A stretch of 64,000 nt of DNA from an uncultured Candidatus Saccharibacteria bacterium (lineage in GTDB: Bacteria > Patescibacteriota > Minisyncoccia > Phycocordibacterales > SIBU01). This document shows positions 4,497 through 62,262 of the stretch, one piece after another. The stretch's first letter is position 1. Every line of letters starts with the position of its first letter. Location: positions 1,653 to 65,652 of the forward strand of contig CAYSEN010000001.1 of NCBI GenBank assembly GCA_964430335.1. Direction: 5' to 3'. The position numbers and the translations under genes were made by a program. The notes beneath the pieces are model-generated. The model saw only the letters and a program-made list of their open reading frames with translations. It was not told where the DNA came from and searched no databases.

Positions 4497-4545
4497 ACTT
4501 GAATTAAACTGGCTTTTGAAGTATCTTACTCATGAGTTTATTTAT

Positions 4546-4618
4546 GCGCCCATAGCTCAGTTGGTAGAGCACCTGCCTTTTAAGCAGAGGGTCGTAGGTT
4601 CGATTCCTACTGGGCGCA
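4546..4618 (+). tRNA. tRNA-Lys (anticodon UUU)
   Basis: Manual fold: acceptor gcgccca/tgggcgc, D-arm gctc-agttggta-gagc, anticodon stem cctgc/gcaga with loop cTTTTaa, T-arm gtagg-ttcgatt-cctac. No encoded CCA. Confidence 0.85.
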
Positions 4619-4626
4619 CAAGACGA

Positions 4627-4654
4627 AAAAATCCGGACTGCTCCGGATTTTTTC
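4627..4654 (+). terminator. rho-independent terminator after tRNA-Lys
   Basis: aaaaaatccgga-ctgc-tccggatttttt. Confidence 0.75.
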
Positions 4655-4659
4655 GTACC

Positions 4660-4705
4660 TGTGCGAGCCGGAGCCATGTTTCGCTACCAAGCGAAACGGG
4701 CGAGG
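4660..4705. repeat. 46-nt direct repeat, copy 1 (copy 2 at 4899-4944), hairpin-containing
   Basis: Identical tgtgcgagccggagccatgtttcgctaccaagcgaaacgggcgagg at both loci. Internal hairpin gtttcgc/gcgaaac. Confidence 0.8.
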
Positions 4706-4837
4706 CAAGGTCATGAAAATTTTCGAGTGGCGACGAGAAAATTATTCCTGACCACAGGCGAAATGACCAAGCAGGTCTAAATGACCTGCGTGTAGGAATC
4801 GAACGGCGGAGTATAAAATTTTCAGCAGAAAATTTTT

Positions 4838-4900
4838 CGAGCCGGTGACCAGACAAAACTTTTTGACGAAAAAGTTTTAGTCGAGGGAGATTTCCTATTG
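4838..4900 (+). ncRNA. conserved tRNA-trailing structured element (copy A; homolog at 62056-62120)
   Basis: cgagccGGTGACCAGACAA-[hairpin aaactttttg/caaaaagttt]-TAGTCGAGGgagatttCCtaTTG aligns with 62056-62120 cgaggcGGTGACCAGACAA-[hairpin atctacaaac/gtttgtagat]-TAGTCGAGGtcgaatCCctgTTG. Flanks are conserved and the hairpin base pairs covary. Confidence 0.5.
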
Positions 4901-4944
4901 TGCGAGCCGGAGCCATGTTTCGCTACCAAGCGAAACGGGCGAGG
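4899..4944. repeat. 46-nt direct repeat, copy 2
   Basis: Exact copy of 4660-4705. Confidence 0.8.
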
Positions 4945-5026
4945 AGGGGTCGCGAGTTTCGAGGCTGACGAGCCGAAGAAAACTTGTGACCACAAGAAAG
5001 TTCACTTAATGAACTATGTTTCTACC

Positions 5027-6203: not shown

Positions 6204-8675
6204 CTACTTACTTTTCTCCATCTCTCCCCAGTTTTCTCCAACCTTCACTTCTACCTTGCAAACCACACCCTTGGTTTTTTCTGGTGAAATCACACTCTCC
6301 ATAATTTTTTTCGCCTCTGATATAAATTCACCTTCCGCACCTTTTTTAACTTCATAAACCAATTCATCGTGCACTTGGAGCAACAAGAAAACCTTGTCAT
6401 TCAAATTGTTTTTTTCAATGTACTGGTCTGCGTGAATCATCGCGATTTTAATAATATCCGCCTCCGTGCCTTGAATCGGCGCGTTAATAGCCATTCTCTC
6501 AGCTGCCGCTCTAATGAAAGGCAACTTTGAAGAAATTCCTGGAAAATATCTTCTCCTGCCAAAAAATGTTTCAGTGTAGCCTAACTTTCTTGTCTCAGAC
6601 TTTACATCTTCCAAATACTTGGCTAGGCCGGCAAACTTTGAAAAATAATCATTGTAAAATTTTTGAGATTCTTCTCTCGTTGTCCCCTCACCCAAATTCG
6701 CCCTAAGCGCATTTACACCCATTCCGTACATGACTCCGAAGTTGATGACTTTTGCCTTTCTTCTCATGTCAGGAGTAACCTTTTCAGGAGGTACACCGAA
6801 AACCTCCGAAGCCACTGCTGTGTGCACGTCCTCGCCGTTTTTAAAAATCTCAATCAATTTCTGATCGCCCGACAAAAAAGCAGCGATGCGGAGCTCAATT
6901 TGAGAATAATCAAACGCTACAAACTGAAAACCTTTGGTAGCCACAAAAGCGTTTCTGATCGCCCGGCCCAATTCCGTCTTGTTTGGAATGTTTTGCAAGT
7001 TAGGATTTTCACATCCCATTCTTCCCGTTGTTGTTCCAGCCTGCAAAAACTGAGCGTGAAGTTTTCCGTCTTTATCCACCATTTCAGGAATCGTGTCGAT
7101 GTAGGTTCCCAAAAGCTTTGAAAGTTCTCGGTATTCCAAGATCAAAGAAATTATTGGATGGACATCTCTTAGTTTCTCCAATTCAGATTCCTTAGTAGAA
7201 AGTGCTCCACCACTAGTCTTTTTCTGATTCTTGGCCTTAAGTCCAAGTTTTTCAAACAAAATCACACCGAGTTGCTTGGGAGAGCTAACGTTAAACTCCT
7301 CGCCGGCCAAACTCCAAATTTTCTTTTCAAGTCCAGCTAATGTTTTGTGATACTCCACCGACAATTCCTTAAGACGTTCTTTGTCTATAGCAATTCCCCG
7401 CTCTTTCATTTTAGAAACAACTGGCATTAGAGGAACCTCTATGTCGTTGAAAACTGAATTTAATTTATACTCGCTGAGTCTTTTTAAAATAATCTTTTCC
7501 GCTTCTTCAAAAGTTTTAGCACCTGTAAAATTCAAAATATCATCGAGCGTAGGATTTGTGGTGTTGGAATTGACCAACCACAAAGCAATAGCCACTCTCG
7601 CTAAATCTTTTGGATCCGGCGCTGGTATCGAGCTTGCAGAAGTTGAAAATAGGTTCTGAACTGGCGCTTCATTTTTAGTCTCCACTTTGTCACCCACTTT
7701 TGCACCGTTCTCCTTAGTTGAAGTTACACTTTTTCCGGAAAGTGCCTGTGTTAATCTCTGTCCCAGATTTCTAAACTCTAAGTCTGCAAAAATCTTTACG
7801 ATTTTCCCAATTTCAATACTTTCCTTCCACTCTTTTTCTGGCAAAACAAAATCGATAGGCGCGTCTCGTCGAATAGTGGCTAGCATTTTGCTAAACTCTG
7901 CTTCTTCTTCGTTGTCCTTAAGTAATTTAATAATGCGATCAGTAAGACCTGCTTTTTTAAAAGCCTTATCATCTTTTTTTAGACTTGCGTAAATATTTTC
8001 AACAGTGCCAAAGTTTTGTATCAAAATTGAAGCAGTTTTTTCACCGATCCCTTTAATGCCGATGATGTTATCCGAAGGATCTCCTCTTAGACCTTTGTAA
8101 TCTGGTAAGAGTTTAGGCGGAAAACCGAACCTTTTAACCACAGCTTCCTCGTCATAAAGGATCGTATCTTGAATACCTTTTTTCAACGTGTAAACCTGAA
8201 CCTTTTCATCGTCGACAAGCTGGAGTGTATCCATATCTCCTGAAGCAATTATAATGTCTGTTGGATTTTCACCTTCCTTTAGTTTTGAATTTCTATCATT
8301 TATCTTGTCGACAATTGTTCCTAAAATATCGTCGGCTTCAAAACCTTCCTTGTCATACATAGGAATTGAAAACGCTTCGAACACATCTCGAGATCTTTTC
8401 ATCTGAGAAACCAACTCAGGGTCTGCTTTTGCCCTCCCTGCTTTGTAATCTTTGTAAGCCTCGTGTCTGTAGGTCGGCTTTGGTAAATCGTACGCCGCCA
8501 CAATATAATCCGGTTTTAAATCAGCGATAATTTTTATTAACATGCTAGCAACACCATAAAGAGCGCCGGTAGGTTCACCTTTTGAACTGCTAAAGTCAGG
8601 TAGAGCATGATAGGCTCGATGCAATATCGCGTGAGCATCAAGTAACACCAGCCTTTTATTGTCATTTTTGGACAT
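6204..8675 (-). CDS. polA: DNA polymerase I (5'-3' exonuclease plus polymerase domains; apparently no 3'-5' exo domain)
   Basis: Motif A DYSQIELR, motif B RRKAKVINFGVMYGMG, motif C VHDELVYEV. N-terminal FEN-like LLDAHAILHRAYHA. Confidence 0.9.
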   Translation of the reverse strand: MSKNDNKRLVLLDAHAILHRAYHALPDFSSSKGEPTGALYGVASMLIKIIADLKPDYIVAAYDLPKPTYRHEAYKDYKAGRAKADPELVSQMKRSRDVFEAFSIPMYDKEGFEADDILGTIVDKINDRNSKLKEGENPTDIIIASGDMDTLQLVDDEKVQVYTLKKGIQDTILYDEEAVVKRFGFPPKLLPDYKGLRGDPSDNIIGIKGIGEKTASILIQNFGTVENIYASLKKDDKAFKKAGLTDRIIKLLKDNEEEAEFSKMLATIRRDAPIDFVLPEKEWKESIEIGKIVKIFADLEFRNLGQRLTQALSGKSVTSTKENGAKVGDKVETKNEAPVQNLFSTSASSIPAPDPKDLARVAIALWLVNSNTTNPTLDDILNFTGAKTFEEAEKIILKRLSEYKLNSVFNDIEVPLMPVVSKMKERGIAIDKERLKELSVEYHKTLAGLEKKIWSLAGEEFNVSSPKQLGVILFEKLGLKAKNQKKTSGGALSTKESELEKLRDVHPIISLILEYRELSKLLGTYIDTIPEMVDKDGKLHAQFLQAGTTTGRMGCENPNLQNIPNKTELGRAIRNAFVATKGFQFVAFDYSQIELRIAAFLSGDQKLIEIFKNGEDVHTAVASEVFGVPPEKVTPDMRRKAKVINFGVMYGMGVNALRANLGEGTTREESQKFYNDYFSKFAGLAKYLEDVKSETRKLGYTETFFGRRRYFPGISSKLPFIRAAAERMAINAPIQGTEADIIKIAMIHADQYIEKNNLNDKVFLLLQVHDELVYEVKKGAEGEFISEAKKIMESVISPEKTKGVVCKVEVKVGENWGEMEKSK

Positions 8676-8691
8676 AAAGCTATTGTAACAA

Positions 8692-9159
8692 CTATAGAGT
8701 TATTTTTCTCGTCTGGTCGTCAACAAATTCAAAATTCATTTTTATAGTATCGTCGGGCAATACATCGGCGACTAAATCTGCCCACTCAATCAAAATTAGA
8801 TTTTTAGGATTTTTTAAAATATTATCGATTCCCAATTTTCTCAATTCATCACCACCCTTCAAACGATAAGCGTCGATGTGTATCAAAGTGTCAAAACGAG
8901 AGTATGAAATTTTGTAAAATTTCATTATGACAAAAGTCGGGCTAGTGATTTGTTCTTTCACGCCAAAGGCCTCCGCTACATATTGCACAAAAGTGGTCTT
9001 ACCAGCGCCCAAATTTCCCACAAGGCCGACAACAGTGGCGCCACTTCTTTCACTTTCTACAATGATCTCACGTAAGGCCTCAACTGCCCCCTTGGTCTCT
9101 TCTAAACTTTTACTGAAAATATCCATAAGCGAAATTGTAGCATATACATTTTTTCCCAA
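8692..9159 (-). CDS. tsaE: tRNA threonylcarbamoyladenosine biosynthesis protein TsaE
   Basis: P-loop VGNLGAGKTTFV. Size and architecture of YjeE/TsaE. Confidence 0.8.
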   Translation of the reverse strand: MGKNVYATISLMDIFSKSLEETKGAVEALREIIVESERSGATVVGLVGNLGAGKTTFVQYVAEAFGVKEQITSPTFVIMKFYKISYSRFDTLIHIDAYRLKGGDELRKLGIDNILKNPKNLILIEWADLVADVLPDDTIKMNFEFVDDQTRKITL

Positions 9160-9213: not shown

Positions 9214-9789
9214 TTATGGGCCAACTCGGTACCGCCTGATGGGCCCGGGACCATTGAGGTCCCGGATCTCCCGGATTCCTCCGGGAGATCCCCAGTAACG
9301 GTACCCTCCAGGGGGCGTGGGTGGTTCCCAACTGTATCCAGGAACCGTACCACCCTGTGGAAGCACGACCGGGACAGCTGGTGGTGTCATGACAACACCT
9401 TGAGGTGGCTGGGACCAAACCTGCCCTGGAGGAGGCGTGGCCCAGCTTCGCTGGGGACCAAAATTGAACTGTCCGTTCGATCCTGCTTGCGCCTGCTGTG
9501 CAGACGCAAGCCCGTTGGTGCGAGCGTACTCATGCTCACGACGCTCGTACTCCATCTTCACCATCGCCTCCTCGTGTCGGAGGCGTGCCTCCTGCAGTGA
9601 CCGGACATGCCGGTCGTATTGCTTGCCGCCATTTTCTAGCACCCTCTGTTCGGGCTCTTGCCCAAACTGATAGGGGCCCTGTCCACGAACGGCGCGGACG
9701 TGCTCGACCCGTGGGGTCGACGAACAACCGGCGAGAAGTACGGCCATTGTGGCGACGATGACCGAACCGATGAATTTAAAGGTCTTCAT
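9214..9789 (-). CDS. proline-rich lipoprotein encoded in a high-GC (about 60%) gene
   Basis: Signal peptide plus lipobox LLAGCSS. Pro/Gly/Gln-rich C-terminus. Composition is sharply different from the flanks. A hairpin ggcacttcg-ataatc-tcgaagtgcc lies 3' at 9166-9190. Confidence 0.5.
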   Translation of the reverse strand: MKTFKFIGSVIVATMAVLLAGCSSTPRVEHVRAVRGQGPYQFGQEPEQRVLENGGKQYDRHVRSLQEARLRHEEAMVKMEYERREHEYARTNGLASAQQAQAGSNGQFNFGPQRSWATPPPGQVWSQPPQGVVMTPPAVPVVLPQGGTVPGYSWEPPTPPGGYRYWGSPGGIREIRDLNGPGPIRRYRVGP

Positions 9790-11650: not shown

Positions 11651-11669
11651 CTTGCAAAAAATTGAACAA

Positions 11670-11701
11670 TACCGGCTCGACATGTGTCGAGCCGGTATTG
11701 C
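11670..11701 (+). terminator. rho-independent terminator after pilB
   Basis: aataccggctcgaca-tg-tgtcgagccggtatt followed by T-rich sequence. Confidence 0.7.
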
Positions 11702-12078: not shown

Positions 12079-13158
12079 ATGTCAAGAAAGTCTAACACAA
12101 AACGAGCAGAAAATGACTCCGAAGAAAACAACACACCTGATGAAAAAACCATAAAAGACAAGGTTTTTTCGGACGATGAAGGTTTTTTAGATCAAACTCT
12201 AAGACCAAGTCATTGGGACGAATATATCGGTCAAAAAAATATTAAGGAGAATTTGAGGATTCTTTTGACCGCTGCCGCTGAAAGAAAACACCCGCCGGAG
12301 CATCTTTTGTTTTACGGCCCTCCAGGATTGGGAAAAACTACCCTCGCCCACCTCATTGCCAAGGAAATTGGTGCACAAATCAAGATAACTTCAGGACCTG
12401 CCATTGAAAAAGTTGGAGATTTAGCATCCGTACTTACAAATTTGTCACCAGGAGACATTCTTTTTATCGATGAAATTCACCGTCTCAACAAAGCTATCGA
12501 GGAAGTGCTATATCCAGCAATGGAATCTGGTCAGCTCGACATCATAATCGGCAAAGGTCCATCAGCCCGCACAATCCAACTTGAACTTCCTCCTTTTACT
12601 CTAATCGCCGCAACTACACGCATCGCACTTCTCTCTTCCCCGCTACGATCACGCTTTGGCGGAGGAGTTTTCAGACTCGAATTTTATTCTGATGAAGAAA
12701 TAGAGGAAATTGTAAAAAGATCTGCAAAAATTTTAGGAGTGGCGGTAGAAAAAACCGCCTCGCAAGAAATTGCCAAGAGAAGTCGTTTCACTCCAAGAAC
12801 TGCAAACTATCTTTTAAAACGAGCCCGAGATTTTGCTCAGGTGAACAAAGGTGATCTTACAAAAGAGATCGTTGATAAATCACTAGCACTGCTCGGAATC
12901 GATGAGCTTGGACTTGGGCACTCAGACAGAGCGCTTCTAAATACACTTATAGAAAAATTTAACGGTGGCCCTGTTGGACTAAACACTTTAGCAGCAGCTC
13001 TTTCTGAGGAGCAAGCAACCATAGAAGAAGTTCATGAACCCTACCTTCTCCAACTTGGCCTGATCGAACGCACACCGAGAGGACGTGTCGCATCCGAAAA
13101 AGCATATCGTCATCTCAAAATCTCCGTTCCAAAAAATCTTCAAGAAAAGCTCCTGTAA
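12079..13158 (+). CDS. ruvB: Holliday junction helicase RuvB (with roughly 45-aa acidic N-terminal extension)
   Basis: GPPGLGKTTLA Walker A, DEIHRL sensor, and RuvB C-terminal winged helix. Confidence 0.9.
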   Translation: MSRKSNTKRAENDSEENNTPDEKTIKDKVFSDDEGFLDQTLRPSHWDEYIGQKNIKENLRILLTAAAERKHPPEHLLFYGPPGLGKTTLAHLIAKEIGAQIKITSGPAIEKVGDLASVLTNLSPGDILFIDEIHRLNKAIEEVLYPAMESGQLDIIIGKGPSARTIQLELPPFTLIAATTRIALLSSPLRSRFGGGVFRLEFYSDEEIEEIVKRSAKILGVAVEKTASQEIAKRSRFTPRTANYLLKRARDFAQVNKGDLTKEIVDKSLALLGIDELGLGHSDRALLNTLIEKFNGGPVGLNTLAAALSEEQATIEEVHEPYLLQLGLIERTPRGRVASEKAYRHLKISVPKNLQEKLL

Positions 13159-13177
13159 AACAGCCAAAATAAAAGCC

Positions 13178-13212
13178 GCCGCGACAAGGTCGCGGCGGCT
13201 TTTATTTTTGTG
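13178..13212 (+). terminator. rho-independent terminator after ruvB
   Basis: aaaagccgccgcgacc-aaggtcgcggcggcttttattttt. Confidence 0.8.
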
Positions 13213-13482
13213 TGCCGAAGAGAGAGATTGCGATCCAAAAAGGTTGAACCTTTTTGGATCTAAACACACATTTCACTCTGCATTTTGTGGGCTTGTGACC
13301 AGCATCAATCTCAAAGTTAAATATTTAGAATGATGGCTGCATTAAAATGTGGAGAATTTTCATCCAGCACAAATCACTTTGTGATGGATTAACCCTAAAT
13401 CGAAACTTGAGATTCTCCCGAACTCACGCTTCTCTTAACCTTCGCGGACTTTTATAAGGAGGTCCGCACCCCGTGAAATAGA

Positions 13483-13791
13483 TCAACCGCCTTGGCTGAC
13501 CCATCGCTTGGCGGCATCAAGAGCCTCTCCAGCGTTCTCGAAACAGACAATGTCCGTTTCGTTGTGCCAGAACTTAATCTGGTCTGTGGCGTTCGCCAGC
13601 GCATCCAGCACCTCGGCGTCCGTCACTATTTTTCGAGTCGGGTGTAAACCCCGACCGAAGAAGCGTTCGAAACAACCTTCGGAACCTCGAACGCCTGAAA
13701 TCTGGAATGTTCGGTCACCAACCTTCCATTCCAGAGATTTCCGATTCCCCTCCACCCAAATGCGGAGGAGGGCTAGTTGTGTGGTGTTCAT
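13483..13791 (-). CDS. hypothetical protein (high-GC island)
   Basis: ORF in a high-GC region. No family recognised. Confidence 0.35.
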   Translation of the reverse strand: MNTTQLALLRIWVEGNRKSLEWKVGDRTFQISGVRGSEGCFERFFGRGLHPTRKIVTDAEVLDALANATDQIKFWHNETDIVCFENAGEALDAAKRWVSQGG

Positions 13792-13816
13792 AATGAACAG
13801 GGTGTGGGGTAAAGCC

Positions 13817-14197
13817 CTACACCAACGAGATCAGACAGACCTCTTTTTCCGTCATGTCACCCATACACCCGTAAGGGCAGTGGCCCTTTGGGGTGACATC
13901 GTAATCGTAGGAGATTCCAATGTTGCCGCAAATGCAGCAGCCTCCTCCTGGGACCCACCACACACCGGCGATGGGTTGAAAAACTCCCGTAGGAGTCAGA
14001 TAGGCCAGGAGTCCTTCGGATTCCTGGCCGCTATAGACAAGACGCTTTTTTGCAGCGTCTAGCACGGGGACACACTCTTCCCCCTGTGTTACTGAGCCGT
14101 CGGCCCAGTAACAGACGTAGCGAGGAATCTCGTTCCTCGCCTGAAGAGAACGAAGCAATGCTTCGATCTCTTTTTTTGATTTTGTTGAACTACTCAT
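13817..14197 (-). CDS. hypothetical Cys-rich protein (high-GC island)
   Basis: Cys cluster GGGCCICGN...HCPYGC. No family recognised. Confidence 0.35.
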   Translation of the reverse strand: MSSSTKSKKEIEALLRSLQARNEIPRYVCYWADGSVTQGEECVPVLDAAKKRLVYSGQESEGLLAYLTPTGVFQPIAGVWWVPGGGCCICGNIGISYDYDVTPKGHCPYGCMGDMTEKEVCLISLV

Positions 14198-14285
14198 AGA
14201 ATTTCATTTTCGAAAAATCAAAAACAAAATTCTATGAGTAGTGCTGAATACTGTCTTTAGATTTACCAACGTTTTGATAAACCCA

Positions 14286-14321
14286 ATAAACAGGAGAAGT
14301 TGTAACCGCAACTTCTCCAAA
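14286..14321. repeat. hairpin direct repeat copy 1 (ataaacaggagaagttgtaaccgcaacttctccaaa)
   Basis: 10-bp perfect stem ggagaagttg/caacttctcc. Near-identical copy at 16058-16093. The flanks (tgataa... and ...cgacaattt) are also shared. Confidence 0.75.
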
Positions 14322-14481
14322 CCTAACGACAATTTTTTCTCGGGATAGTCGTCCTTCCCATGACACTGCATGTCAGGCCACACCATTTAGAACGGTGGCA
14401 ACTTTCCAGCATTTTTCATGCCGGACTTTTACGCACTTCTGTTACGAAGGTGGTGCGATCCTTCGGATGTCTTTCCATCAG

Positions 14482-14805
14482 TCAGAGAGTGACGCGGATA
14501 GCCACAACCTCGTCGTCCGCACTGCATTTGAATATACCAAGTACCTGTTCAAGGCCGTTTGTGCGACGTTGAAAGTCTTGGTCATCATTTGCATTGTGAC
14601 GATTGGTGGCATTTTCATGCGCAGTCTTCGGGAAAAAACAAACGCAATAAACGCTGTCGTTCCAAAAACCTGAACATGAATCCTCATCACTCTCTCCCTC
14701 CAAAATCGCTTCTGGCACATAAGTGAAATCAAATGTACCGAAGGTATTTCGAGCAATCTTTATTGCCCGAATGATCTCAGAGGGATTAAGGCTAACTTCC
14801 TTCAT
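14482..14805 (-). CDS. hypothetical protein (107 aa from MKEV start)
   Basis: Strong SD GGGAGGAG upstream of the ATG (MKEVSLNP). The ORF-track N-terminal extension is probably not translated. Confidence 0.4.
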   Translation of the reverse strand: MKEVSLNPSEIIRAIKIARNTFGTFDFTYVPEAILEGESDEDSCSGFWNDSVYCVCFFPKTAHENATNRHNANDDQDFQRRTNGLEQVLGIFKCSADDEVVAIRVTL

Positions 14806-14923
14806 GGAAGCTCTCCTCCCACTTTTTTCACTGAAGTGGCAAACCGTCGAATGCAGTTCCGCCAAACAGCTCACGTTTTACGATAGGCAGTGAGGGCCTT
14901 TGAGAGACTGACGGTCTCTCAAA

Positions 14924-15853
14924 CTACTTGAGGTACTTCGTGAGCACCTCAACCACCCGCTCGACTGAAAGGGTCGAGCTGACACCCTGAGGGCTTCCGC
15001 CGATGGTCGGGGAACCTCCCCAACCCGGCTCGAGGGTCGCCAACTCGGCGAGCGCGGACTTGATGTCCGCGTACTTGCTGGCCTCGAAGGCGCAGATCGT
15101 GAACTTCCGGTGGGGCTCTCCCGCCCCGAGCCGAAAGCTCGGGTTGAGCGCCACCACGACCGGCGCCAGCGCATAGCCAACCGACGTGGCGGCGCGGTGC
15201 GTCGACTCGACGACCGCAATGCACCCGCCGGCACAAACCTCGTGCCGAATCGCTCCGCTCTCAAGAGCGGCGATCATGTCGGCGCGCTCGCGCTCAACCT
15301 GAGCGCGATAGTTGCCCGGCTCCTCGCCGGTCAACAACCACTTTTCCATAGTGGCGACCCGCTCCCCGAGTGGGATCTTGAAGTCCGCAACCGCCGCCGC
15401 AATCGCGGCGAGCGGTCGGGACGATTCGGCCCCTGCCGAGCTATCGTCCCACGGGCTGCCCCGGGTCGGGAGGGGTTTCGGGCCGGTGTACCCGCCACGT
15501 GCGAACTTGTCGGCGGCGGCAACCATACTGATCCGATCCATCGCGGACTCGAGACCTTCGCCCTTCGCCCGGATGTTGAAGATCGCCATCGCCCCAACAC
15601 TGTCGAGGTCGGCTCGCACAGTGACCAATGTCGCCCTCTCGGCCGGGATCTCTACCGTCAGCGCGGCCTCGATGGCCGAGCTGTTGGCGTCTCCTTCCGA
15701 TCCGTGCTGGGGGTCGAGGTTGTACACGCACCGAGCCGCAAGGCTCGGGACGGTCACCTCGATTCCGAACACCTGCCCGGACGAGAAAACCTTCTCGTTC
15801 GCCTCAGAGGCGGCCGGAAGATTGCGGGGATCCAGAATTGCAAAATGAAACAT
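14924..15853 (-). CDS. hypothetical protein (309 aa, about 65% GC) with C-terminal Gly-rich motif GWGGSPTIGGSPQG
   Basis: ATG (MFHFAILDP) preceded by AGGTGA. Many overlapping ORFs here are high-GC artefacts. No confident family. Confidence 0.45.
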   Translation of the reverse strand: MFHFAILDPRNLPAASEANEKVFSSGQVFGIEVTVPSLAARCVYNLDPQHGSEGDANSSAIEAALTVEIPAERATLVTVRADLDSVGAMAIFNIRAKGEGLESAMDRISMVAAADKFARGGYTGPKPLPTRGSPWDDSSAGAESSRPLAAIAAAVADFKIPLGERVATMEKWLLTGEEPGNYRAQVERERADMIAALESGAIRHEVCAGGCIAVVESTHRAATSVGYALAPVVVALNPSFRLGAGEPHRKFTICAFEASKYADIKSALAELATLEPGWGGSPTIGGSPQGVSSTLSVERVVEVLTKYLK

Positions 15854-16057
15854 TTTGTAATTCACCTATCTTCAAACAAAAGCAAAAAAATGTGACTATT
15901 TTGGTACACACTTATTTTGTTCTCACAAAACGCGGGTTTCTAAGTCGCGAATTGTGCCTGAATCGGATTTGTCGACAAGTGAGCGGGGGTCTAGACTGTC
16001 CCCATTCACCTGTCGAAACCAATTCGTGTCTACAGACTGGCAAAATTTGTCAGCCTG

Positions 16058-16093
16058 ATAAACAGGAGAAGTTGTAACCACAACTTCTCCAAA
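16058..16093. repeat. hairpin direct repeat copy 2 (ataaacaggagaagttgtaaccacaacttctccaaa)
   Basis: See copy 1. There is one loop substitution (g to a). Confidence 0.75.
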
Positions 16094-16158
16094 ACCCGTG
16101 CGACAATTTATCCATTTTGTGGAATAGGAAGTCGCCCTTCCTTTGTTGTTGGTCTGGA

Positions 16159-16557
16159 CTAGCGATATGTTGCATCTTTCCAGACTGTAAAACTACGACC
16201 TTCCGCGGTCGTAGTTTCGATGATCTGGTGACCGGGAGCTTCCCCGGTCTCAGCCAGAACCTCCTCATCCAGGCATTCCATCCTGGATGAAAGAGTGGTC
16301 AGCCGGAGATTCCCGGCCACGGCGAGTTTCTCGAACTCGCCGTTCATCTCGCGCAACTGCGCGAGACAGTAAGCCAGATGTTCTGGCGCATCTTCGACGC
16401 CTGTAGCATCGACCGATATCTCCGGACCGCACAGGCAGTCCGGAGATGTCTCATTCAGAAAGAGCAACTGCCCCCTCCGAACGAACCACAATTTCATTTT
16501 CATAAAATTGTAAAAAGGATGGTACCGCCAGCCAACATGGCCAGCGAACAAATACAA
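16159..16557 (-). CDS. hypothetical protein (island)
   Basis: ORF track. AGAGGG-like SD before the first ATG. Confidence 0.3.
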   Translation of the reverse strand: MYLFAGHVGWRYHPFYNFMKMKLWFVRRGQLLFLNETSPDCLCGPEISVDATGVEDAPEHLAYCLAQLREMNGEFEKLAVAGNLRLTTLSSRMECLDEEVLAETGEAPGHQIIETTTAEGRSFTVWKDATYR

Positions 16558-17189
16558 TCCCTCTTTCCGGCACTAAGTAAATCTAACGCCGGAGAAGAGG
16601 AATAACATTGCGGTTATTGCTTTGGCAAAATTTGTTCCGCCTTACTCCTTCCTCTCTATTTAGTTTTCAAATTACTTCCCTACTCTACCTATCACTTTCC
16701 GCAACTCGCGGACTTCCTGGTGTAAGGACATTTTGAAGTACAAAGTGGGTTAGACTTTACACTTCATCGATGTCCTGACGAGCCTTCTCGTCGACAACGG
16801 GCGATGAGTTTACCTTAAAGGTATATCTCCGTCATTTGGAATGGGTTTCGAAGCCAGACCATATGTAGAGCACTCATCATTCGAAACGAGATATTCAAAA
16901 GGCTGCCTCTCTCCCCACTCTCTCTTCTTTCCATACTTAGCCGCTTTCGCGGAGGCTATGGGACCTTCCCTTTCGGGCTAGAGGTGGGGGGCAATCTTTC
17001 GGCTATCTCCTGAACGAACTTGACTTTCTGGCAATAGAATATCTTAATTAGATAGCGAGTGTCAATTATTTATGACATAAAATGGCCGGTTATTGCAAAA
17101 TCTAGTAACAACATGGATTTTATGGCTTATCCACATATTACTATTGTCATATACTTGTGACAAAAACAGCTTTATGCTAGACTAAAAGT

Positions 17190-17996
17190 ATGGAAAATTC
17201 ATCATACGAAAAATTTTTAAGCGAGTTGGGCCTAACAAAAGAACAATCTTCCGTGTATGAAAGCCTTCTAAAAAACGGCCTTTTGCCGGCTAGACTTGTT
17301 TCCTTAAAAACAGGAATAAAGCGCAGCTTGGCCTATAAGATAATTGAACAGCTGATTGCCCTAGGTTTGGTTGAAAAAAGGGAAAATATTGGCAAAGTCA
17401 CTCTGTTCTTCCCTACCCATCCCGGAAAACTTCGTGAATTGGTCCAGAGACGCGAGGAGGAGCTGAAAAAGGCGGAGGCTAGCCTCGGTGGAATTATGGG
17501 CAAAATGGTTTCGGATTTTAATTTACTTTCAGGAAAGCCAAATGTTCAATTCTATGAAGGAATGGACGGTATGAAAAAAGTTCTTGAAGACTCTTTGACT
17601 GCGGAGGGTGAGATTTTGGCTTACTCAGATATTGTGGCGATACAAAAATACATACCCGAAGTAAATGCTGACTACGTTGCGAAAAGAAGAAAATTTGGTG
17701 TTAAGAAAAAAGGTTTGATATTTGATTCTCCAGAAGCTAGAAAAATACTAGAGGGTTACAATCCTGACATTACTGAAAACAAATTCATTAAATTTAAAGC
17801 TGATCCTTCAAAAACAATTATGCAGATATATGACAACAAGATTTCATATATCACTCTTAGTGAAAATCAAATGATAGGCGTTATTGTGGAGGACAAACAA
17901 ATCGCTTCACTGCACAGAAACCTATACGAGTATCTTTGGAATACTATTCCGCAAGACGGCTCATCTGCGTCGGTCGCGAAAAAGTTTGAAGATTAG
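17190..17996 (+). CDS. TrmB-family transcriptional regulator (N-terminal winged HTH plus C-terminal domain)
   Basis: N-terminus LTKEQSSVYESLLKNGLLPARLVSLKTGIKRSLAYKIIEQLIALGLV is wHTH-like. Size is typical of TrmB. Confidence 0.5.
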   Translation: MENSSYEKFLSELGLTKEQSSVYESLLKNGLLPARLVSLKTGIKRSLAYKIIEQLIALGLVEKRENIGKVTLFFPTHPGKLRELVQRREEELKKAEASLGGIMGKMVSDFNLLSGKPNVQFYEGMDGMKKVLEDSLTAEGEILAYSDIVAIQKYIPEVNADYVAKRRKFGVKKKGLIFDSPEARKILEGYNPDITENKFIKFKADPSKTIMQIYDNKISYITLSENQMIGVIVEDKQIASLHRNLYEYLWNTIPQDGSSASVAKKFED

Positions 17997-21479: not shown

Positions 21480-22082
21480 ATGGAAAACATTTTGTACTTA
21501 AAATTTGCATCTTCGGTCTTGGCAAGCATCATCACGTTTTTTGGTTTTTACCCTTACATAAAAGATATATTTGCCGGGAACACAAAACCTCATTTGTACA
21601 CATGGCTTATCTGGTCACTAACCCAAATTACGAATGCGATTATTGTTGCAAGAGGAGGAGCGGGTTATCTAGCCTCTATATCATTCGTTACTGGGTCATC
21701 GCTTGTTTCATTAGTATTTATACTCAGTATCAAATATGGAACTAAAAATATTACCAAGACTGACACTAGCTTACTGATATTAGAATTGGTCGCAATTTTA
21801 TTTTTATGGAAATTCAATGACCCACTGACCTCACTCTTATTAATTTCCTTCATTGATCTGGCTGGTTACATTCCAACTATAAGAAAGTCGTTTGAGGAAC
21901 CATGGAGTGAATCTTTAATATTTTGGATCTTAATGAATGTTGGAAATATTTTTACATTAATAGCTCTCAACAAATACAACATTTTAACCACTTTTTACTT
22001 AATTATTCTCTTTGTAGGCAATAGTGCAGTTTTTTCGGTATGTATACTTAGAAGGAGAATTATTGATAAGATAAGCAAATAA
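21480..22082 (+). CDS. hypothetical polytopic membrane protein
   Basis: About 6 hydrophobic helices. Confidence 0.45.
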   Translation: MENILYLKFASSVLASIITFFGFYPYIKDIFAGNTKPHLYTWLIWSLTQITNAIIVARGGAGYLASISFVTGSSLVSLVFILSIKYGTKNITKTDTSLLILELVAILFLWKFNDPLTSLLLISFIDLAGYIPTIRKSFEEPWSESLIFWILMNVGNIFTLIALNKYNILTTFYLIILFVGNSAVFSVCILRRRIIDKISK

Positions 22083-22290
22083 GTTGTCCACAGAAAGCAG
22101 GTATTTGCAAAAAAAATGGCTATTTGATAAAACTATGACACTAGGGTGTTTCCTTTAAAAAGAACAAGGAAAATACTCATTAACAATTAACTTTTTGTTC
22201 ATGGACGACGAGAACGAGACATTAGATCCAGATCTTATGGATGAAGCATCTCCAGATCTAGGAGATGGTGAGGAAGAAGACATGATATAA

Positions 22291-22324
22291 AAATAAACCC
22301 CCTTTAAAGGGGGTTTATTTTTAT
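22291..22324. terminator. bidirectional terminator (serves tyrS on the minus strand)
   Basis: aaataaaccccctttaaagggggtttattttt. Confidence 0.8.
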
Positions 22325-22325
22325 A

Positions 22326-23540
22326 TCATTTGATTGTTACTTTTAGGAATCGATGTTTCCCGACCTTAAACACAGCGGAAGATTCAACTTTGAAGTTAAA
22401 ATCCAAAATCTTTACGACTTTTCCATCCGATTCTAGAAAACCGACCGCGTTTTCCCCAACAAGCCTTCTCCATTCTGACTTTGAAGATATTAGGCTGGTT
22501 TTGAGCAGACACTCGGACAAAAGGCTTCCCTTCTCTGATTCAATTTCTGGTATCTCGTCTGGAATTTCACCTTTGCTAAAAGTTTTAAGAAAATTTTCTT
22601 TCGCAACTTTAGCTTTTTTGTCTCCGTAGTAAACAGCCACTACCTTTTCTGCAAGTCTCAATTTCAAATCTCTAGGATTAACTCCGGATTCTAAACTTTT
22701 TTTAATATCGGCTATTTCGGAAAGTGGCACGGTTGTACACAATTCAAAAACCGGCAAAATAAAGTCATCAGACCAACTCATTACTTTGCCAAAAATTTCA
22801 TCTGGTTTTTCGTTTAAAGAAACCATGTTCCCCTCTGTTTTACCCATTTTTTTGCCAGTAGAGTCGACAAGCAACTTCATTGAAATAACCACCTTTTCTT
22901 TGTCGTTTAGCTTTTTAAGCAAATCCCTACCCATCAACATATTAAAGGTTTGGTCATTTCCTCCTATCTCTCCATCTACATTCATCGCAACCGAATCGTA
23001 ACCTTGTAAGACAGGGTAAAGGAATTCACTTAAATACAGATCTTTTCCTTCACTAATTCTTTTCTGGAACATGTCTCGCTTAATGGTCTGAGCATAGGTT
23101 ACATTTGAAAGAAGTTTGGCAATGTCCACCATCGATAATTTATTTATCCACTTTGAATTATATTTTAATTCGGCAGGATTATTGCCTGAAAAATTCAAAA
23201 TCTTTGAAACCTGCTTTTTGTAGAACTTGGCGTTGGCTACAACTTGTTCGCGAGTAAGAGGGACTCTCATCGACATTTTATCAGGATCGCCAATCATGGC
23301 TGTAAAATCTCCGATCAGTAAAATAATTTTATGTCCTAATTTCTGGAATTGAGCCAATTTTAGCATCGGAATTACATGACCAAGATGAAGGGTTGGTCCT
23401 GTAGGGTCGGCTCCTAAATATATAGTTAATTTCTCACTTTTTGAGAGTTTTTCTTGCAAATATTCCCTGCTCGGGTATATTCGCTCAACTCCTCGGGTTA
23501 ACAGTTCGTTAATTATTTCTTGATTTTCCATGAACAACAT
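22326..23540 (-). CDS. tyrS: tyrosyl-tRNA synthetase
   Basis: HIGH motif LHLGH, KMSKS-like KMGKT and a C-terminal S4-like domain. The true start may be the internal Met (MENQEI, about 23531). Confidence 0.9.
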   Translation of the reverse strand: MLFMENQEIINELLTRGVERIYPSREYLQEKLSKSEKLTIYLGADPTGPTLHLGHVIPMLKLAQFQKLGHKIILLIGDFTAMIGDPDKMSMRVPLTREQVVANAKFYKKQVSKILNFSGNNPAELKYNSKWINKLSMVDIAKLLSNVTYAQTIKRDMFQKRISEGKDLYLSEFLYPVLQGYDSVAMNVDGEIGGNDQTFNMLMGRDLLKKLNDKEKVVISMKLLVDSTGKKMGKTEGNMVSLNEKPDEIFGKVMSWSDDFILPVFELCTTVPLSEIADIKKSLESGVNPRDLKLRLAEKVVAVYYGDKKAKVAKENFLKTFSKGEIPDEIPEIESEKGSLLSECLLKTSLISSKSEWRRLVGENAVGFLESDGKVVKILDFNFKVESSAVFKVGKHRFLKVTIK

Positions 23541-54695: not shown

Positions 54696-56867
54696 TTATT
54701 TTTGTGCCGGTTTCTTAATAAAGTTTGGATCGGCGTCCTTGATTGATAATTTTATTCTATCTCTTTCGTCGATTTCTTTTACGATTACTGGGACAACATC
54801 TCCCTCTTTTAAGTATGATGCCACCTGATCAATTCTAAACGGTGCTATCTCTGATATGTGAACTAAACCTTCTGTAGAGCCACCAATTTTTACGAACGCT
54901 CCGAACTCAGCGATTTTTACGACCACACCTTGGAATCTCTCACCTCTTTTGTACTCGTGTGTCATGTCTTCGATAATCTTTTTGGCCTTTTCGGCTGTGC
55001 CGTTTTTACCTGTAATGTAAACTGTTCCATCATCTTCTATATCGATACCGTCAACTCCGGTTTTTTCCTTTATGTCGTTAATAGTTTTTCCGCCAGTACC
55101 AATCACAAGTCCGATTTGATCCACTTTTATCTTTACAAGAAGAATCTTCGGAGCGTTTGGTGAAATATCTGCTCTAGGGAGATTAATTTCGGCTAACATG
55201 ACACCTAGGATTTTTAATCTGGCCTGTTTAGCCTTTTCAAAAGCCTCCTCCAAAACATGAAGTGGAATTCCATCTACTTTTACATCCATTTGCACTGCTG
55301 TTACACCTTTTGTTGTTCCCGCTACTTTAAAATCCATATCTCCGTGATGGTCCTCTGGTCCTTGAATATCAGTGAGAACCTTATACTCTTTAGAATTTTT
55401 CATCATTAGACCTGAGGCGATTCCTGCAACAGGAGCAGATATTGGCACTCCAGCATCCATCAGCGCTAGGGTTGAACCACAAACACTACCCATCGAAGTT
55501 GAACCATTTGAAGCAAATGCTTCAGAAACAATTCTAATGGTGTATGGGAAACTGTCTTTGTGAGGTAAGACCGGTACAAGAGCTTTTTCAGCAAGTGCGC
55601 CGTGGCCAATCATTCTTCTGTTAGTCGAACCAATTCGACCTGTTTCGCCAGAAGAAAATGGTGGAAAGTTATAATGATGCATGTATCTCTTTTTTGTCTG
55701 TGACTCCATTCCTTCAATCACCTGAGATTCACCAGGACCTCCTAGTGTAAGAGCGGATAAAATATGAGTACCTCCTCTGTAGAAGATTCCTGAACCGTGC
55801 AAAATAGGAGAAACTCCCCCAGCTTTAGCAAAAAGCGGTCGTAGTTCGTCCATTTTTCTATTATCAGGTCTCTTGTCATTTTTGATGGCCTCTTCGTGAA
55901 TAAGGTCATTTACTCTTTCTTCAAAATATCCATCTGCTACTCCTGACTTTTGCTCAGGTAATTTCTCCTTGAAAAGATTCATCCATTCTGATTTAAGTTC
56001 GTATATTTTAGCGTTACCAGGTTCACCACACATGACAAAATCTGCCATCTTGCCTTCGATGTTTTGAGCAAATAGGTCAACAATCTCTTTTGAAACCTCA
56101 GGTTTAGGAATTATTTTCTTGGTCTTGCCTATTTCTTTCACTACCATTTTCTGAAATTCTTGAAGTTTCTCGATTTCTTCAACCGCTTTTTTAAGTGCGG
56201 ACATTAGAATTGGCTCTGCGATTTCCTTACCCCCAACTTCAATCATGTTGATATTCCCATCTTTTCCACAAGCGACTATGTCAGCATCGTAATTTTCCGC
56301 CTCTCGTGTTTTGTAATTAGGGTTAATCACAAAGTTATTGGTTTCCTTCTCAATTCCAATTCTTACTGAAGAAACCGGTCCATTCCAAGGGATGTCTGAA
56401 GTGCTAAGAGCAAGCGATGCTCCCAAGACCCCTAAAACATCTGGATCGTCCTCATCGATTGATAGTACGGTTATGACTACTTGAACCTCATGACGAATGT
56501 ATTGGTCAAAAAGTGGTCTGATTGTTCGGTCGACAATTCTTCCGGAAAGGATAGCTTCGTCGGTTGGTCTTCCCTCTCTTCTCACAAAACGACTACCTAA
56601 AATTTTACCTCCAGCATAAAATCGTTCCTCGTAATCAACAGTAAGAGGAAACCAGTCGCCCCCTTCTTTTGCGTTTTTTGACATTACTGCTGTGGCTAAA
56701 AGTACAGTATTACCATATCGGATTATCACCGAACCATTGGCTTGTTCAGCCAAATCACTAAACTCTGCAGTAAGAGTCTTCCCTCCCAACTCTATCGAGA
56801 ATTCTTTTTTCTTCATAACATTTTGAGACCTTCGAATCTGCCCCGTAGTGAATTCAATGGAACTCAC
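54696..56867 (-). CDS. pnp: polyribonucleotide nucleotidyltransferase (PNPase)
   Basis: Two RNase PH domains, a KH domain (GLVIGTGGKTI) and a C-terminal S1 domain (ERFQGVVVKIAEFGAFV). Confidence 0.95.
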   Translation of the reverse strand: MSSIEFTTGQIRRSQNVMKKKEFSIELGGKTLTAEFSDLAEQANGSVIIRYGNTVLLATAVMSKNAKEGGDWFPLTVDYEERFYAGGKILGSRFVRREGRPTDEAILSGRIVDRTIRPLFDQYIRHEVQVVITVLSIDEDDPDVLGVLGASLALSTSDIPWNGPVSSVRIGIEKETNNFVINPNYKTREAENYDADIVACGKDGNINMIEVGGKEIAEPILMSALKKAVEEIEKLQEFQKMVVKEIGKTKKIIPKPEVSKEIVDLFAQNIEGKMADFVMCGEPGNAKIYELKSEWMNLFKEKLPEQKSGVADGYFEERVNDLIHEEAIKNDKRPDNRKMDELRPLFAKAGGVSPILHGSGIFYRGGTHILSALTLGGPGESQVIEGMESQTKKRYMHHYNFPPFSSGETGRIGSTNRRMIGHGALAEKALVPVLPHKDSFPYTIRIVSEAFASNGSTSMGSVCGSTLALMDAGVPISAPVAGIASGLMMKNSKEYKVLTDIQGPEDHHGDMDFKVAGTTKGVTAVQMDVKVDGIPLHVLEEAFEKAKQARLKILGVMLAEINLPRADISPNAPKILLVKIKVDQIGLVIGTGGKTINDIKEKTGVDGIDIEDDGTVYITGKNGTAEKAKKIIEDMTHEYKRGERFQGVVVKIAEFGAFVKIGGSTEGLVHISEIAPFRIDQVASYLKEGDVVPVIVKEIDERDRIKLSIKDADPNFIKKPAQK

Positions 56868-57091
56868 TATATGGTAGAATTTTCAACTCTTGGCACTTTC
56901 CTCGATTTTCAAGGGAAATATCAAAAATTGAATTCTACTTTGGGGTTTTAGGTTTCGTCCAAACGTTGTTTGGGCAAAAACTACCTATTCGAAGACCTCG
57001 GCTAACTTTTAATGTTTAGAGTTTAGCAGAAATGTGAACATTTTAATATTTGACACTTATCTGTCTTTCTTGCTTAGAGAAACAAAAGAAA

Positions 57092-57120
57092 ATGCCCGGC
57101 GCGTTTCGCGCCGGGCATTT
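57092..57120. terminator. GC-rich hairpin terminator between NYN gene and pnp leader
   Basis: gcccggcgcg-tttc-gcgccgggc flanked by A-run and T-run. Confidence 0.7.
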
Positions 57121-57123
57121 TCT

Positions 57124-57696
57124 TTATTCTTCCGAAGGCTTTCTACCGCCCTCCTCAAATTTTTCAACTCTTTCTGGTCTCCTACTTGTGGTACCCATCA
57201 AGTATTTTCTCGGATTTTCATCTAAATCAATAAATTCATCAGCAGCTTCTTTCAATCTTCCAGAGGCGGATTTTCCAAAGGTCACCACTTCTACTTGGCA
57301 ACCTTCGTGAACTTGTAAATATTCTACGAGTGGTACAAAGTCACCGTCTCCTGTTACGAGAATCACAGCATCTAATTTAGGAGCTAATTTAATTGCATCA
57401 ACTGCCATCCCTACATCCCAATCGGCTTTCTTGGCTCCACCAGCAAAAATCTGCAAATCTTTTGTTTTTGCTTCGATTCCCATTTTAGCTAAGGCCTCAA
57501 AAAAGCCCTTTTCATCTCCAGATTCGGTGGTGATGACATAGGCCATGGCACGGATGAGTGCCCTACCTGCCAAAGCGTCTTTAACTACTTGTCCAAAGTT
57601 TACACGGGCGTTATAGAGATTTCTCGCTGTGTGATATAGATTTTGCGTATCAATAAAAATACCAACCCTCTGTTCCTTGTGTTTAATTACAGTCAT
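57124..57696 (-). CDS. NYN-domain (LabA/PIN-like) protein
   Basis: VGIFIDTQNLYH...ILVTGDGDFVPLV pattern typical of NYN nucleases. Confidence 0.7.
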   Translation of the reverse strand: MTVIKHKEQRVGIFIDTQNLYHTARNLYNARVNFGQVVKDALAGRALIRAMAYVITTESGDEKGFFEALAKMGIEAKTKDLQIFAGGAKKADWDVGMAVDAIKLAPKLDAVILVTGDGDFVPLVEYLQVHEGCQVEVVTFGKSASGRLKEAADEFIDLDENPRKYLMGTTSRRPERVEKFEEGGRKPSEE

Positions 57697-61846: not shown

Positions 61847-61904
61847 TTAGGGTTATTTTATTATATCTTTTGATTTTTCGCTAATTAGCGTATGATATGG
61901 AAAC

Positions 61905-61976
61905 GCTCTCGTGGTGAAATGGATATCACAACGGTCTTCGGAACCGTCGTTGGGGGTTCGAATCCCTCCGGGAGCA
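61905..61976 (+). tRNA. tRNA-Arg (anticodon UCG)
   Basis: Acceptor gctctcg/cgggagc (one G-U), anticodon stem acggt/accgt with loop cTTCGga, T-arm ggggg-ttcgaat-ccctc. Overlapping ORF 61892-62095 is spurious. Confidence 0.8.
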
Positions 61977-62055
61977 CAATAAGCGAAGCTATATTGCTCC
62001 CGGAGGGATTCGAGCGCCGGAGCACACGAAGTCCAGACTCAGCAGAGTTTGGGTG

Positions 62056-62120
62056 CGAGGCGGTGACCAGACAATCTACAAACGGCGGTTTGTAGATTAG
62101 TCGAGGTCGAATCCCTGTTG
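62056..62120 (+). ncRNA. conserved tRNA-trailing structured element (copy B)
   Basis: See copy A at 4838-4900. Confidence 0.5.
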
Positions 62121-62191
62121 TTTACGATCTTTGAGTATCAAGTCTTCTCATTTGTATAAATTTAATTTCAAGCTATAATGTTTGAAATTAA

Positions 62192-62262
62192 GCGGGTATG
62201 GTTTAGTGGTAGAATGGTTCCTTGCCAAGGAACAGACGGGAGTTCGATTCTCCCTACCCGCA
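62192..62262 (+). tRNA. tRNA-Gly (anticodon GCC)
   Basis: Acceptor gcgggta/tacccgc, anticodon stem gttcc/ggaac with loop tTGCCaa, T-arm gggag-ttcgatt-ctccc. Confidence 0.85.

Follow-up and report, generated by a model that had tools for sequence, protein, structure and literature searches.

The 64,000-nucleotide (nt) stretch of DNA analysed here, which we call the window, comes from contig CAYSEN010000001.1 (positions 1,653 to 65,652, forward strand) of an uncultured Candidatus Saccharibacteria bacterium, and carries, between ruvB and a gene for a TrmB-family regulator, an array of five minus-strand open reading frames (ORFs), o1 to o5. Our analysis leads us to think, with moderate confidence, that positions 13166-17065 (minus strand) form a single resident unit of Patescibacteria, namely a ribozyme-processed and hairpin-stabilised mRNA array paired with a divergent TrmB gene. 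The array is bounded by a promoter-like site and a leader at one end and by a twister ribozyme and a terminator at the other. Its elements, starting with the regulator gene beside its head, are as follows.

17190-17996, plus strand: gene for a TrmB-family regulator (Pfam PF01978), divergent from the array
17036-17065, minus strand: promoter-like site at the array head (TTGACA, a spacer of 16 or 18 nt, then GATATT or TATTCT; 10 of 12 consensus matches)
16595-17035, minus strand: leader RNA of ~430 nt, structured and with several hairpins capped by GNRA loops
16159-16503, minus strand: o5, 114 amino acids (aa), whose coding sequence is a run of near-perfect hairpins
15854-16150, minus strand: structured module upstream of o4, containing copy 1 of a repeat (16058-16093)
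14924-15853, minus strand: o4, 309 aa, the core gene, with a G+C content at third codon positions (GC3) of 0.80 and a modelled, remote likeness to DHH/DHHA1-fold phosphoesterases
14482-14805, minus strand: o3, 107 aa
14379-14479, minus strand: pseudoknotted RNA motif starting at the o3 stop codon
14286-14321, minus strand: copy 2 of the repeat, a 36-nt terminator-like hairpin, upstream of o2
13817-14197, minus strand: o2, 126 aa, Cys-rich, with a narrow distribution
13483-13791, minus strand: o1, 102 aa, the last cassette ahead of the twister
13270-13348, minus strand: predicted type-P1 twister ribozyme at the 3' end of the array, with a predicted cut at about U13344/A13343
13166-13208, bidirectional: intrinsic terminator common to the array and ruvB, with a 20-bp perfect stem and T runs on both sides

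The original prediction had placed five minus-strand genes here, opposite in strand to ruvB and the TrmB gene, and the same five (114, 309, 107, 126 and 102 aa) are called by the JGI and Logan gene callers in other assemblies. The Shine-Dalgarno strings it had named are present (GGGAGGAG ahead of ATG 14805, AGGTGA ahead of ATG 15853), while for o5 the start is most likely ATG 16503 and not TTG 16557 (the callers gave 114 aa for three JGI assemblies and 112 aa for Logan). Searches of Pfam, PHROGs, NCBIfam and PADLOC gave no match for any of the five ORFs and, as had been stated, showed no integrase or transposase family among them. That they belong to no recognisable family holds for the curated libraries only: o4 has at least 813 homologues and a DHH/DHHA1-like fold, and o1, o2, o3 and o5 have a few homologues each. 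The twister (13270-13348), the leader (~16595-17035), the 36-nt hairpin repeat and a gene at 9214-9789 had gone unmentioned. As for composition, G+C is indeed raised between ~13350 and ~16650 over the window mean of ~0.39, but unevenly and not to 55-65% throughout as had been described: the ORFs range from 0.45 to 0.65 (o4 0.65, o1 0.54, o2 0.52, o5 0.53-0.56, o3 0.45), the long spacers lie at 0.41-0.42 and two short spacers at 0.51-0.52. The 300-nt peak of 0.69, at 15000-15300, is inside o4. Next to its GC3, that of o1, o2 and o5 is 0.57-0.62, and host genes (polA, tsaE, pilB, ruvB, trmB and a GNAT gene) have values of 0.33-0.38; trmB, at 0.38, is host-like in both composition and folding.

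The whole array is predicted to be saturated with RNA structure. We assessed folding throughout by minimum free energy (MFE) predictions, and compared each gene with synonymous-codon shuffles that keep its protein and codon usage. The z scores obtained were -4.5 for o1, -7.3 for o2, -6.5 for o3, -5.3 for o4 and -9.9 for o5, as compared with +0.6 for trmB, -0.3 for pilB, -0.9 for polA, -1.5 for ruvB, -1.6 for tsaE and -2.4 for the GNAT gene. Dinucleotide shuffles gave -7.3 for o4, -11.6 for o5 and about +1.0 (+0.98) for trmB. When all 64 kb were scanned in 300-nt segments, 25 of the 26 segments over 13051-16800 had z below -4 (minimum -12.3; median of the window -0.48), and this block is the longest one of excess RNA structure in the window. 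Its shape is that of a chain of local hairpins, with stems of 10-28 bp and loops of 3-5 nt. The sense fold beats the antisense fold in 14 of 14 comparisons, by 4.5-87 kcal/mol, and contains more G-U pairs in 13 of them. Homologues of o4 in related loci (numbered L001 onwards) gave z scores of -18.3 (L013), -13.0 (L036), -11.1 (L076), -8.4 (L050), -7.8 (L011) and -7.7 (the viral L045), and in scans of L005, L011 and L008 the arrays coincided with uninterrupted structured blocks, with z near 0 in the host genes around them. These predictions indicate that the excess structure is generic and sense-strand-specific and that it carries the G+C excess. A rod-like fold of o4, of the viroid or Obelisk type, was rejected since its helices are local, just 72 of 428 pairs spanning more than 300 nt, and so was a single conserved mRNA fold across the o4 homologues, the evidence for it being weak.

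The distribution of G+C over codons points in the same direction. In o1, o2, o3 and o5, third positions predicted to be unpaired have a GC of 0.30-0.37, which is the host value, and paired ones of 0.48-0.73. Homologues of o4 hold a GC3 of 0.6-0.95 in hosts of 0.37-0.50 GC, and do so at 68-75% nucleotide and 65-78% amino-acid identity to o4, i.e., with synonymous sites saturated. We infer from these values and from the folding models that the GC excess is mainly a by-product of long-term selection for sense-RNA stems and not the signature of a foreign donor.

A permissive Rfam scan (E<=5) of the 4.3 kb from 13000 to 17300 gave a match to the twister model RF03160 at 13270-13348 (minus strand; 50.5 bits, E = 1.8e-9) over the full model (positions 1-68). 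The match lies 135 nt past the o1 stop, directly ahead of the terminator. Its P1, P2 and P4 stems, the core (UAA-NGCNGCC / GGUC-CAAGCCC / GCNGAG) and the pseudoknot are present, and in the alignment the pseudoknot triplet is preserved through a change from CCC/GGG to CAC/GUG. An identical core, UAAUGCAGCC...GGUCACAAGCCC...UGCAGAGUG, was found at the same place, after the o1 homologue, in L011 and L076, where the P4 sequences are unrelated to that of the window and the P5 inserts are long and differ. Because the same core is kept amid unrelated P4 and P5 sequences, the comparison supports a real ribozyme, predicted to be self-cleaving and to leave 2',3'-cyclic phosphate and 5'-OH ends.

Related arrays also carry ribozymes of another class. 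A strict hammerhead descriptor that we wrote was run on 127 related loci (~1.03 Mb), with the empty opposite strand as the sole control, and returned 45 type-III hammerhead matches in 35 of these loci, every match being on the strand of o4; one of them, in L031, looks doubtful. A hammerhead lies at most 400 nt from the o4 start, mostly at 165-184 nt, in 17 of the 93 loci with enough upstream sequence, and 52-110 nt past the o4 stop in six loci. In L008 and L020, o4 has a hammerhead on either side, and in L005 four of them separate successive cassettes. Rfam returned sub-threshold type-III hammerheads in L005, L095, L019 and L069; at the gathering threshold, nine further loci gave tRNA and transfer-messenger RNA (tmRNA) only and no other ribozyme class. 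These matches suggest that ribozymes mark this class of arrays, the relatives using type-III hammerheads between or around the cassettes instead of the twister. Our literature search found no paper tying twister or hammerhead ribozymes to the candidate phyla radiation (CPR), to which these Patescibacteria belong.

Two pairs of hammerheads flank an o4-containing block as direct repeats. In L005 the copies at 7073-7123 and 9389-9439 are identical over 55 nt, and in L008 those at 7855-7941 and 8973-9059 have an identical long stem-II insert and compensatory changes in stem I. Such pairs could have a role in RNA circularisation or in DNA recombination.

Several further RNA modules are conserved between arrays, although the covariation tests rest on 3-8 sequences. 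At the head, the promoter-like site (17065-17036), a near-consensus match only, is upstream of the leader and faces away from the TrmB gene. The leader has an MFE z of -6.07, is 82% identical to that of L011 over 243 nt and strongly matches L076; in these three sequences 105 pairs are predicted, 19 of them compensatory. Its 3' hairpin (16725-16776; AGGACAU...loop GUCUAACCC...AUGUCCU) was found in 8 arrays, which belong to different CPR lineages, and has 18 pairs (11 compensatory) with 96.5% of cells paired, a result reached by 0 of 500 shuffles (slid controls 42-53%). The motif at 14379-14479 consists, in order, of a hairpin, an H-type pseudoknot (14432-14479) and a further hairpin (14379-14398); over five sequences it has 22 pairs, 98.2% of cells paired and 10 compensatory pairs, again with 0 of 500 shuffles (slid controls 35-46%). 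The o4-upstream module of ~300 nt has homologous modules in L011, L076 and L004 and occupies the position of the hammerhead in other arrays, so that it may be considered as a candidate for a new ribozyme class. Its hairpin part is repeated within each of the window, L011 and L076: in the window, the 36-nt copies at 16058-16093 and 14286-14321 are 97% identical and are the only two in 64 kb, with 0 expected by chance. Rfam gave no match (E<=5) for the leader or the spacer modules. Two identifications were tried and dropped. The leader is not a tmRNA, which L001 has upstream of o4, as ARAGORN, Rfam and nhmmer were all negative for the window leader, and the o4-upstream module, although it can be parsed in the window as a degenerate hammerhead three-way junction, does not keep this parse in L011.

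The array is a conserved and resident feature of the CPR. Among the at least 813 homologues of o4, identity is 57-75% in the best 120, those with a name are almost all from Patescibacteria, and Pfam domains are absent throughout. When species-representative genomes were scanned, o4 turned up in metagenome-assembled genomes (MAGs) of Paceibacteria, Nomurabacteria, Saccharibacteria, Woesebacteria, Uhrbacteria and Taylorbacteria; outside the CPR it was seen in a few otherwise-labelled MAGs, in one Nesterenkonia flava contig and, as five distant relatives, on IMG/VR contigs. A divergently transcribed TrmB homologue is near o4 in 19 of the first 42 loci, and the pairing spans many CPR classes. A check for the island in related genomes, which had been proposed, showed that it is present at the same locus in L011, a Nomurabacteria MAG, with the same GNAT-TrmB-[array]-RuvB order; the array is 8 kb long there versus 3.9 kb in the window, and the TrmB proteins of the two are 68.5% identical.

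Within this frame, cassette content and order vary between close relatives, and the earlier idea of accessory cargo is borne out to that extent. The o1 homologues of L011 and L076 are ~49.5% identical to o1, each is followed by a twister, and o1 is the last cassette in all three arrays. A homologue of o3 (50% identical) immediately follows o4 in L004; the sequences flanking the o3-type cassette are found upstream of o4 in L011 and L076 and downstream of it in the window and L004. Only three homologues of o2 were found (94, 81 and 52% identity), and those of o5 are few (one of 89 aa, 49% identical, and one of 113 aa, 34% identical), a match of o5 to a 3390-aa leucine-rich-repeat protein having been judged uninformative.

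Continuity of the locus was examined in contigs from three other JGI samples (L128, L129 and L130) and in a Logan assembly (L131). The three former carry the exact o4 protein, are 99.0-99.2% identical to the window and are colinear over one or both borders, while L131 is 100% identical over the whole island and both borders. Together with the gene order of L011, this refutes, as far as sequence data allow, the chimeric join that had been offered as one explanation, and indicates that the array is resident and conserved. Among the 99%-identical strain contigs, o2 holds 22 substitutions in 381 nt, and o3, o4, o5 and the leader together hold 2 in ~2 kb, too few to compare strain polymorphisms with hairpin conservation; the array flanks differ by 0.1-1.3%, depending on the strain. 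Public assemblies often break in or beside o4, and at least two MAGs have the gene divided between two of their contigs (L032 and L038, L033 and L041), which suggests strain heterogeneity, multiple copies or G+C-related loss of coverage.

The o4 protein was modelled with AlphaFold from an alignment of 15 sequences, shallow and closely related (pLDDT 84.5), and the fold call comes from this one model. The model has the two-domain DHH and DHHA1 fold; Foldseek against the PDB placed archaeal RecJ2, PAP phosphatase and DhhP on top (E ~1e-3, probability >0.9), and a BFVD fold search returned phage 'DHH superfamily phosphohydrolases'. This indicates that o4 is a divergent and remote DHH/DHHA1-like phosphoesterase fold. 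Pfam and NCBIfam searches left PF01368 and PF02272 unmatched, and a sequence-profile search of the PDB gave no DHH protein, only a chance match to SSB. Among motifs I-IV and GGGH, the motif I-like RxDLDxVG is the only canonical one: DPQH (residues 47-50) replaces DHH, GWGGSPxIGGSPQG replaces GGGH, and the motif order looks permuted because DPQH precedes the DxD motif. In the model, the invariant residues D8, E32, D47, H50, D82, D84 and D115 are at strand ends, and acidic or His residues follow each of the four N-terminal strands, from which the metal site appears intact; these residues are suggestive of a metal-dependent phosphoesterase activity. As compared with known DHH/DHHA1 phosphoesterases (NrnA, PggH, GdpP/DhhP, TM1595, archaeal RecJ/Cdc45, PAP phosphatase), o4 is alike in its two-domain fold and size class, in the motif I-like R-x-D-x-D-x-x-G after a beta strand, in the invariant Asp, Glu and His at strand ends and in the Gly-rich loop of its C-terminal domain. 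It differs from them by the absence of a Pfam DHH/DHHA1 match, by the permuted-looking motif order and by the altered DHH and GGGH motifs, and the family also differs by zinc-ribbon insertions in some members. These CxxC...CxxC zinc-ribbon-like insertions are at differing loop positions in the homologues P0083, P0114, P0111, P0050, P0107 and P0077.

Taken as a working model, the array would be transcribed as long RNAs, from which the ribozymes would release defined cassette mRNAs that end in 5'-OH and 2',3'-cyclic phosphate. The saturation with hairpins would make these mRNAs resistant to single-strand-specific RNases and hence long-lived, and would be what raises G+C and GC3 in this AT-rich genome. 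Expression of the array would be under the control of TrmB and the leader RNA, and the DHH-like enzyme would act on a small phosphoester, e.g., a nanoRNA, pAp, a cyclic nucleotide or an RNA end.

Several points weigh against this model. The transcription, cleavage and stability of the array RNA are all inferred. The window has one recognisable ribozyme only, the 3' twister, and its score of 50.5 bits is below the RF03160 gathering score of 67.2. The low-GC3 homologues of o4 in L029, L025, L093 and L027 (Nesterenkonia) have z near 0, so the o4 protein does not need the structure. Hairpin positions are weakly conserved in the o4 family, with 4 pairs found in at least 50% of 48 sequences and 66 in at least 30%; because so few pairs are common, the o4 structure is best described as general foldedness and not as one fold. 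A mutational cause of the hairpins, e.g., quasi-palindrome correction, is a formal possibility. The third positions of o4 are still GC-rich when unpaired (0.63, versus 0.86 when paired), and a second contribution to its G+C is therefore possible. The DHH assignment is by fold only, at a sequence identity of 6-14%, with no Pfam match and non-canonical DHH and GGGH motifs. Finally, in some bacteria an mRNA can be made less stable, and not more so, by a 5'-OH end, as in the glmS case cited in a 2019 review (PMC6765202).

The model can be extended to cassettes that operate at the RNA level, a speculation that we hold to be quite unlikely. Ribozyme-cut, hairpin-saturated mRNAs, possibly circularised, would persist in an exonuclease-proof and translatable form while AU-rich unstructured mRNAs are destroyed, and the DHH-like enzyme would clear the signal or the debris; the destruction could come from toxin RNases, from the collateral RNases of CRISPR type III/VI or from starvation. 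If true, the G+C island would be the trace that selection on RNA survival has left in the genome, and leader and pseudoknot alike would represent new regulatory or catalytic RNA classes.

The closest known systems are hammerhead clusters that cut polycistronic RNA and lie around single genes or around short gene blocks whose identity changes (Perreault et al. 2011, PMC3088659). The 2019 review (PMC6765202), where it covers Roth et al. 2014, describes twister and hammerhead as having gene associations in common, for a reason not yet determined there. Our arrays resemble these associations in that several coding-strand ribozymes flank genes or blocks that vary and are mostly of unknown identity, twister and hammerhead can stand in for each other at equivalent places, and the proposed role is the processing of long transcripts. 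The flanking by multiple ribozymes is, however, seen in relatives (L005, L008, L020), whereas the window has a single one. Unlike those clusters, the window array is in the CPR/Patescibacteria and has no prophage context (no PHROG match, integrase or phage gene); it has a conserved DHH-like o4, a divergent TrmB partner, a ~430-nt leader and a pseudoknot module, and its coding sequences are all hairpin-saturated and G+C-enriched. In the papers searched, no description of such coding sequences was found.

Other parallels come from RNA replicons. Genome-scale ordered RNA structure (GORS) of persistent RNA viruses is an excess of folding over coding regions without one conserved fold, and retrozymes and Obelisks are rod-like circular RNAs with hammerheads. 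The array is like GORS in its excess folding energy across coding regions and its lack of a single conserved fold, and L008 and L020 are like retrozymes and Obelisks in that type-III hammerhead repeats flank a single-ORF unit of ~1.1-1.2 kb. It is unlike all of them in being DNA-encoded in a bacterial chromosome, in forming local hairpins and not a rod, and in having no replicase or reverse transcriptase, and circular RNA is not in evidence.

Among the alternatives to a resident RNA-processing array, the one that survives best, although we consider it unlikely, derives the array from the early region of a CPR phage or conjugative element, now domesticated or degenerate; moron or anti-defence genes would then be processed by ribozymes, and the hairpins might act in single-stranded DNA on entry. 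Published hammerhead clusters do occur in prophages and flank Agrobacterium ardA (PMC3088659), and the structure of the array is strand-specific. On the IMG/VR contigs L044 and L045 the o4 relatives are among many small same-strand ORFs, the L045 copy being hyper-structured (z = -7.7), a DUF932 gene is near the L043 copy, and the BFVD fold matches are phage DHH phosphohydrolases. Phage structural, replication or integration genes are nevertheless absent in and beside the window array, which has no PHROG match either, and the chromosomal synteny with TrmB and GNAT is kept across lineages. The array is also stable in its population at ~1% divergence, and the ribozymes and the G-U-rich sense fold point to RNA and not to DNA as the level at which the structure acts.

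A horizontally acquired island, whose composition would reflect a high-GC donor and whose cargo could be a defence or toxin module, was the other explanation first offered, and we find it improbable. It would account for the o4 GC3 of 0.80 in a host at 0.33-0.38, for the variation in cassettes between close relatives, for an o2 with just three homologues, for the distant o4 relatives on five IMG/VR contigs, for tmRNA or tRNA genes adjoining some arrays and for the Nesterenkonia copy, which is in a mobile/defence region beside IS110 and IS3 transposases, a methylase and a McrBC-like pair. However, the borders of the window array have no integrase, transposase, att-like or flanking direct repeat, or tRNA. 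The array is at the same locus in L011, the TrmB-o4 pairing extends across many CPR classes with o4 almost confined to the CPR, and the high GC3 is kept despite saturated synonymous sites. Composition is not donor-like at all sites either, the long spacers and the unpaired third positions of four of the five ORFs being host-like, except in o4 (0.63), so that a recent import from a high-GC donor is poorly supported. The actinobacterial copy itself has a GC3 of 0.54, below the 0.58-0.60 of its contig, and no excess structure. The defence or toxin module finds no support, with no PADLOC match among six ORFs (E<=0.1), and tblastn gave no match in INPHARED phages or PLSDB plasmids.

That the hairpin repeats are attC sites of an integron-like cassette array without integrase (CALIN) is very improbable. 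It is true that the ORFs are small, share one strand and vary in content, with conserved hairpin-bearing spacers between them; the 26-nt hairpin, however, is terminator-like, with a perfect 10-bp stem, a 6-nt loop and a U-rich tail, and contains neither the R''/R' core sites (RYYYAAC / GTTRRRY) nor extrahelical bases, which rules out attC sites by motif. In addition, no IntI gene or tyrosine recombinase is present, and the spacers of relatives carry ribozymes. Finally, a fragment of a high-GC contaminant stitched into a low-GC contig, which the sharp compositional change and the many public contigs that break in or beside o4 might suggest, is hardly credible given the four colinear assemblies, the same flanking gene order in L011 and the host-like GC of the spacers within the island.

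Some observations concern individual copies of o4 and other parts of the window. The Nesterenkonia flava JCM 14814 contig (L027) holds the sole copy found in an isolate genome (7127-8053, 57% identity), between the two transposases and a gene cluster for a methylase and for McrBC-like and NucS-like proteins; either a true transfer to an actinobacterium or a contamination could account for this copy. A tmRNA is beside the o4 array in two lineages, at 7267-7615 in L001/L063 (386 nt upstream of o4 in L001) and at 10771-11160 in L025 (on the opposite strand, ~1.9 kb downstream). Integration often takes place at tmRNA genes, but no integrase was seen. In the window, an isolated 191-aa lipoprotein-like ORF (9214-9789, minus strand) between tsaE and pilB is G+C-rich (GC 0.61, GC3 0.61) and, with a synonymous-shuffle z of -5.5, of the array-gene kind; it has no homologue in the 127 related loci, and Rfam found no ribozyme nearby and no match in its region. 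The folding minima at 22051-22350 (z = -12.8) and in the pilB-ruvB spacer are explained by long perfect terminator hairpins (22283-22330 and 11668-11700) and look ordinary. Further stretches with z < -4 are 4501-4950 (over tRNA Lys), 56701-57300 and 61651-62550 (over tRNA Arg and Gly).

The reading of the array as a resident, hairpin-stabilised mRNA unit implies that a local G+C or GC3 anomaly, usually taken as a sign of horizontal gene transfer or misassembly, can mark selection for RNA secondary structure, which is a caveat for composition-based transfer and contamination screens, above all in the AT-rich genomes of the CPR. The o4 family has more than 800 homologues, a fixed core gene, a regulator and ribozymes placed at set distances, and so provides ample and homogeneous material for asking why bacterial twister and hammerhead ribozymes have gene associations in common. 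The parts that would be new are a divergent DHH-like enzyme family, a ~430-nt leader RNA, a pseudoknot adjacent to a stop codon and the module upstream of o4, and the arrays as a whole are a conserved and so far unannotated feature of a major, poorly understood bacterial radiation.

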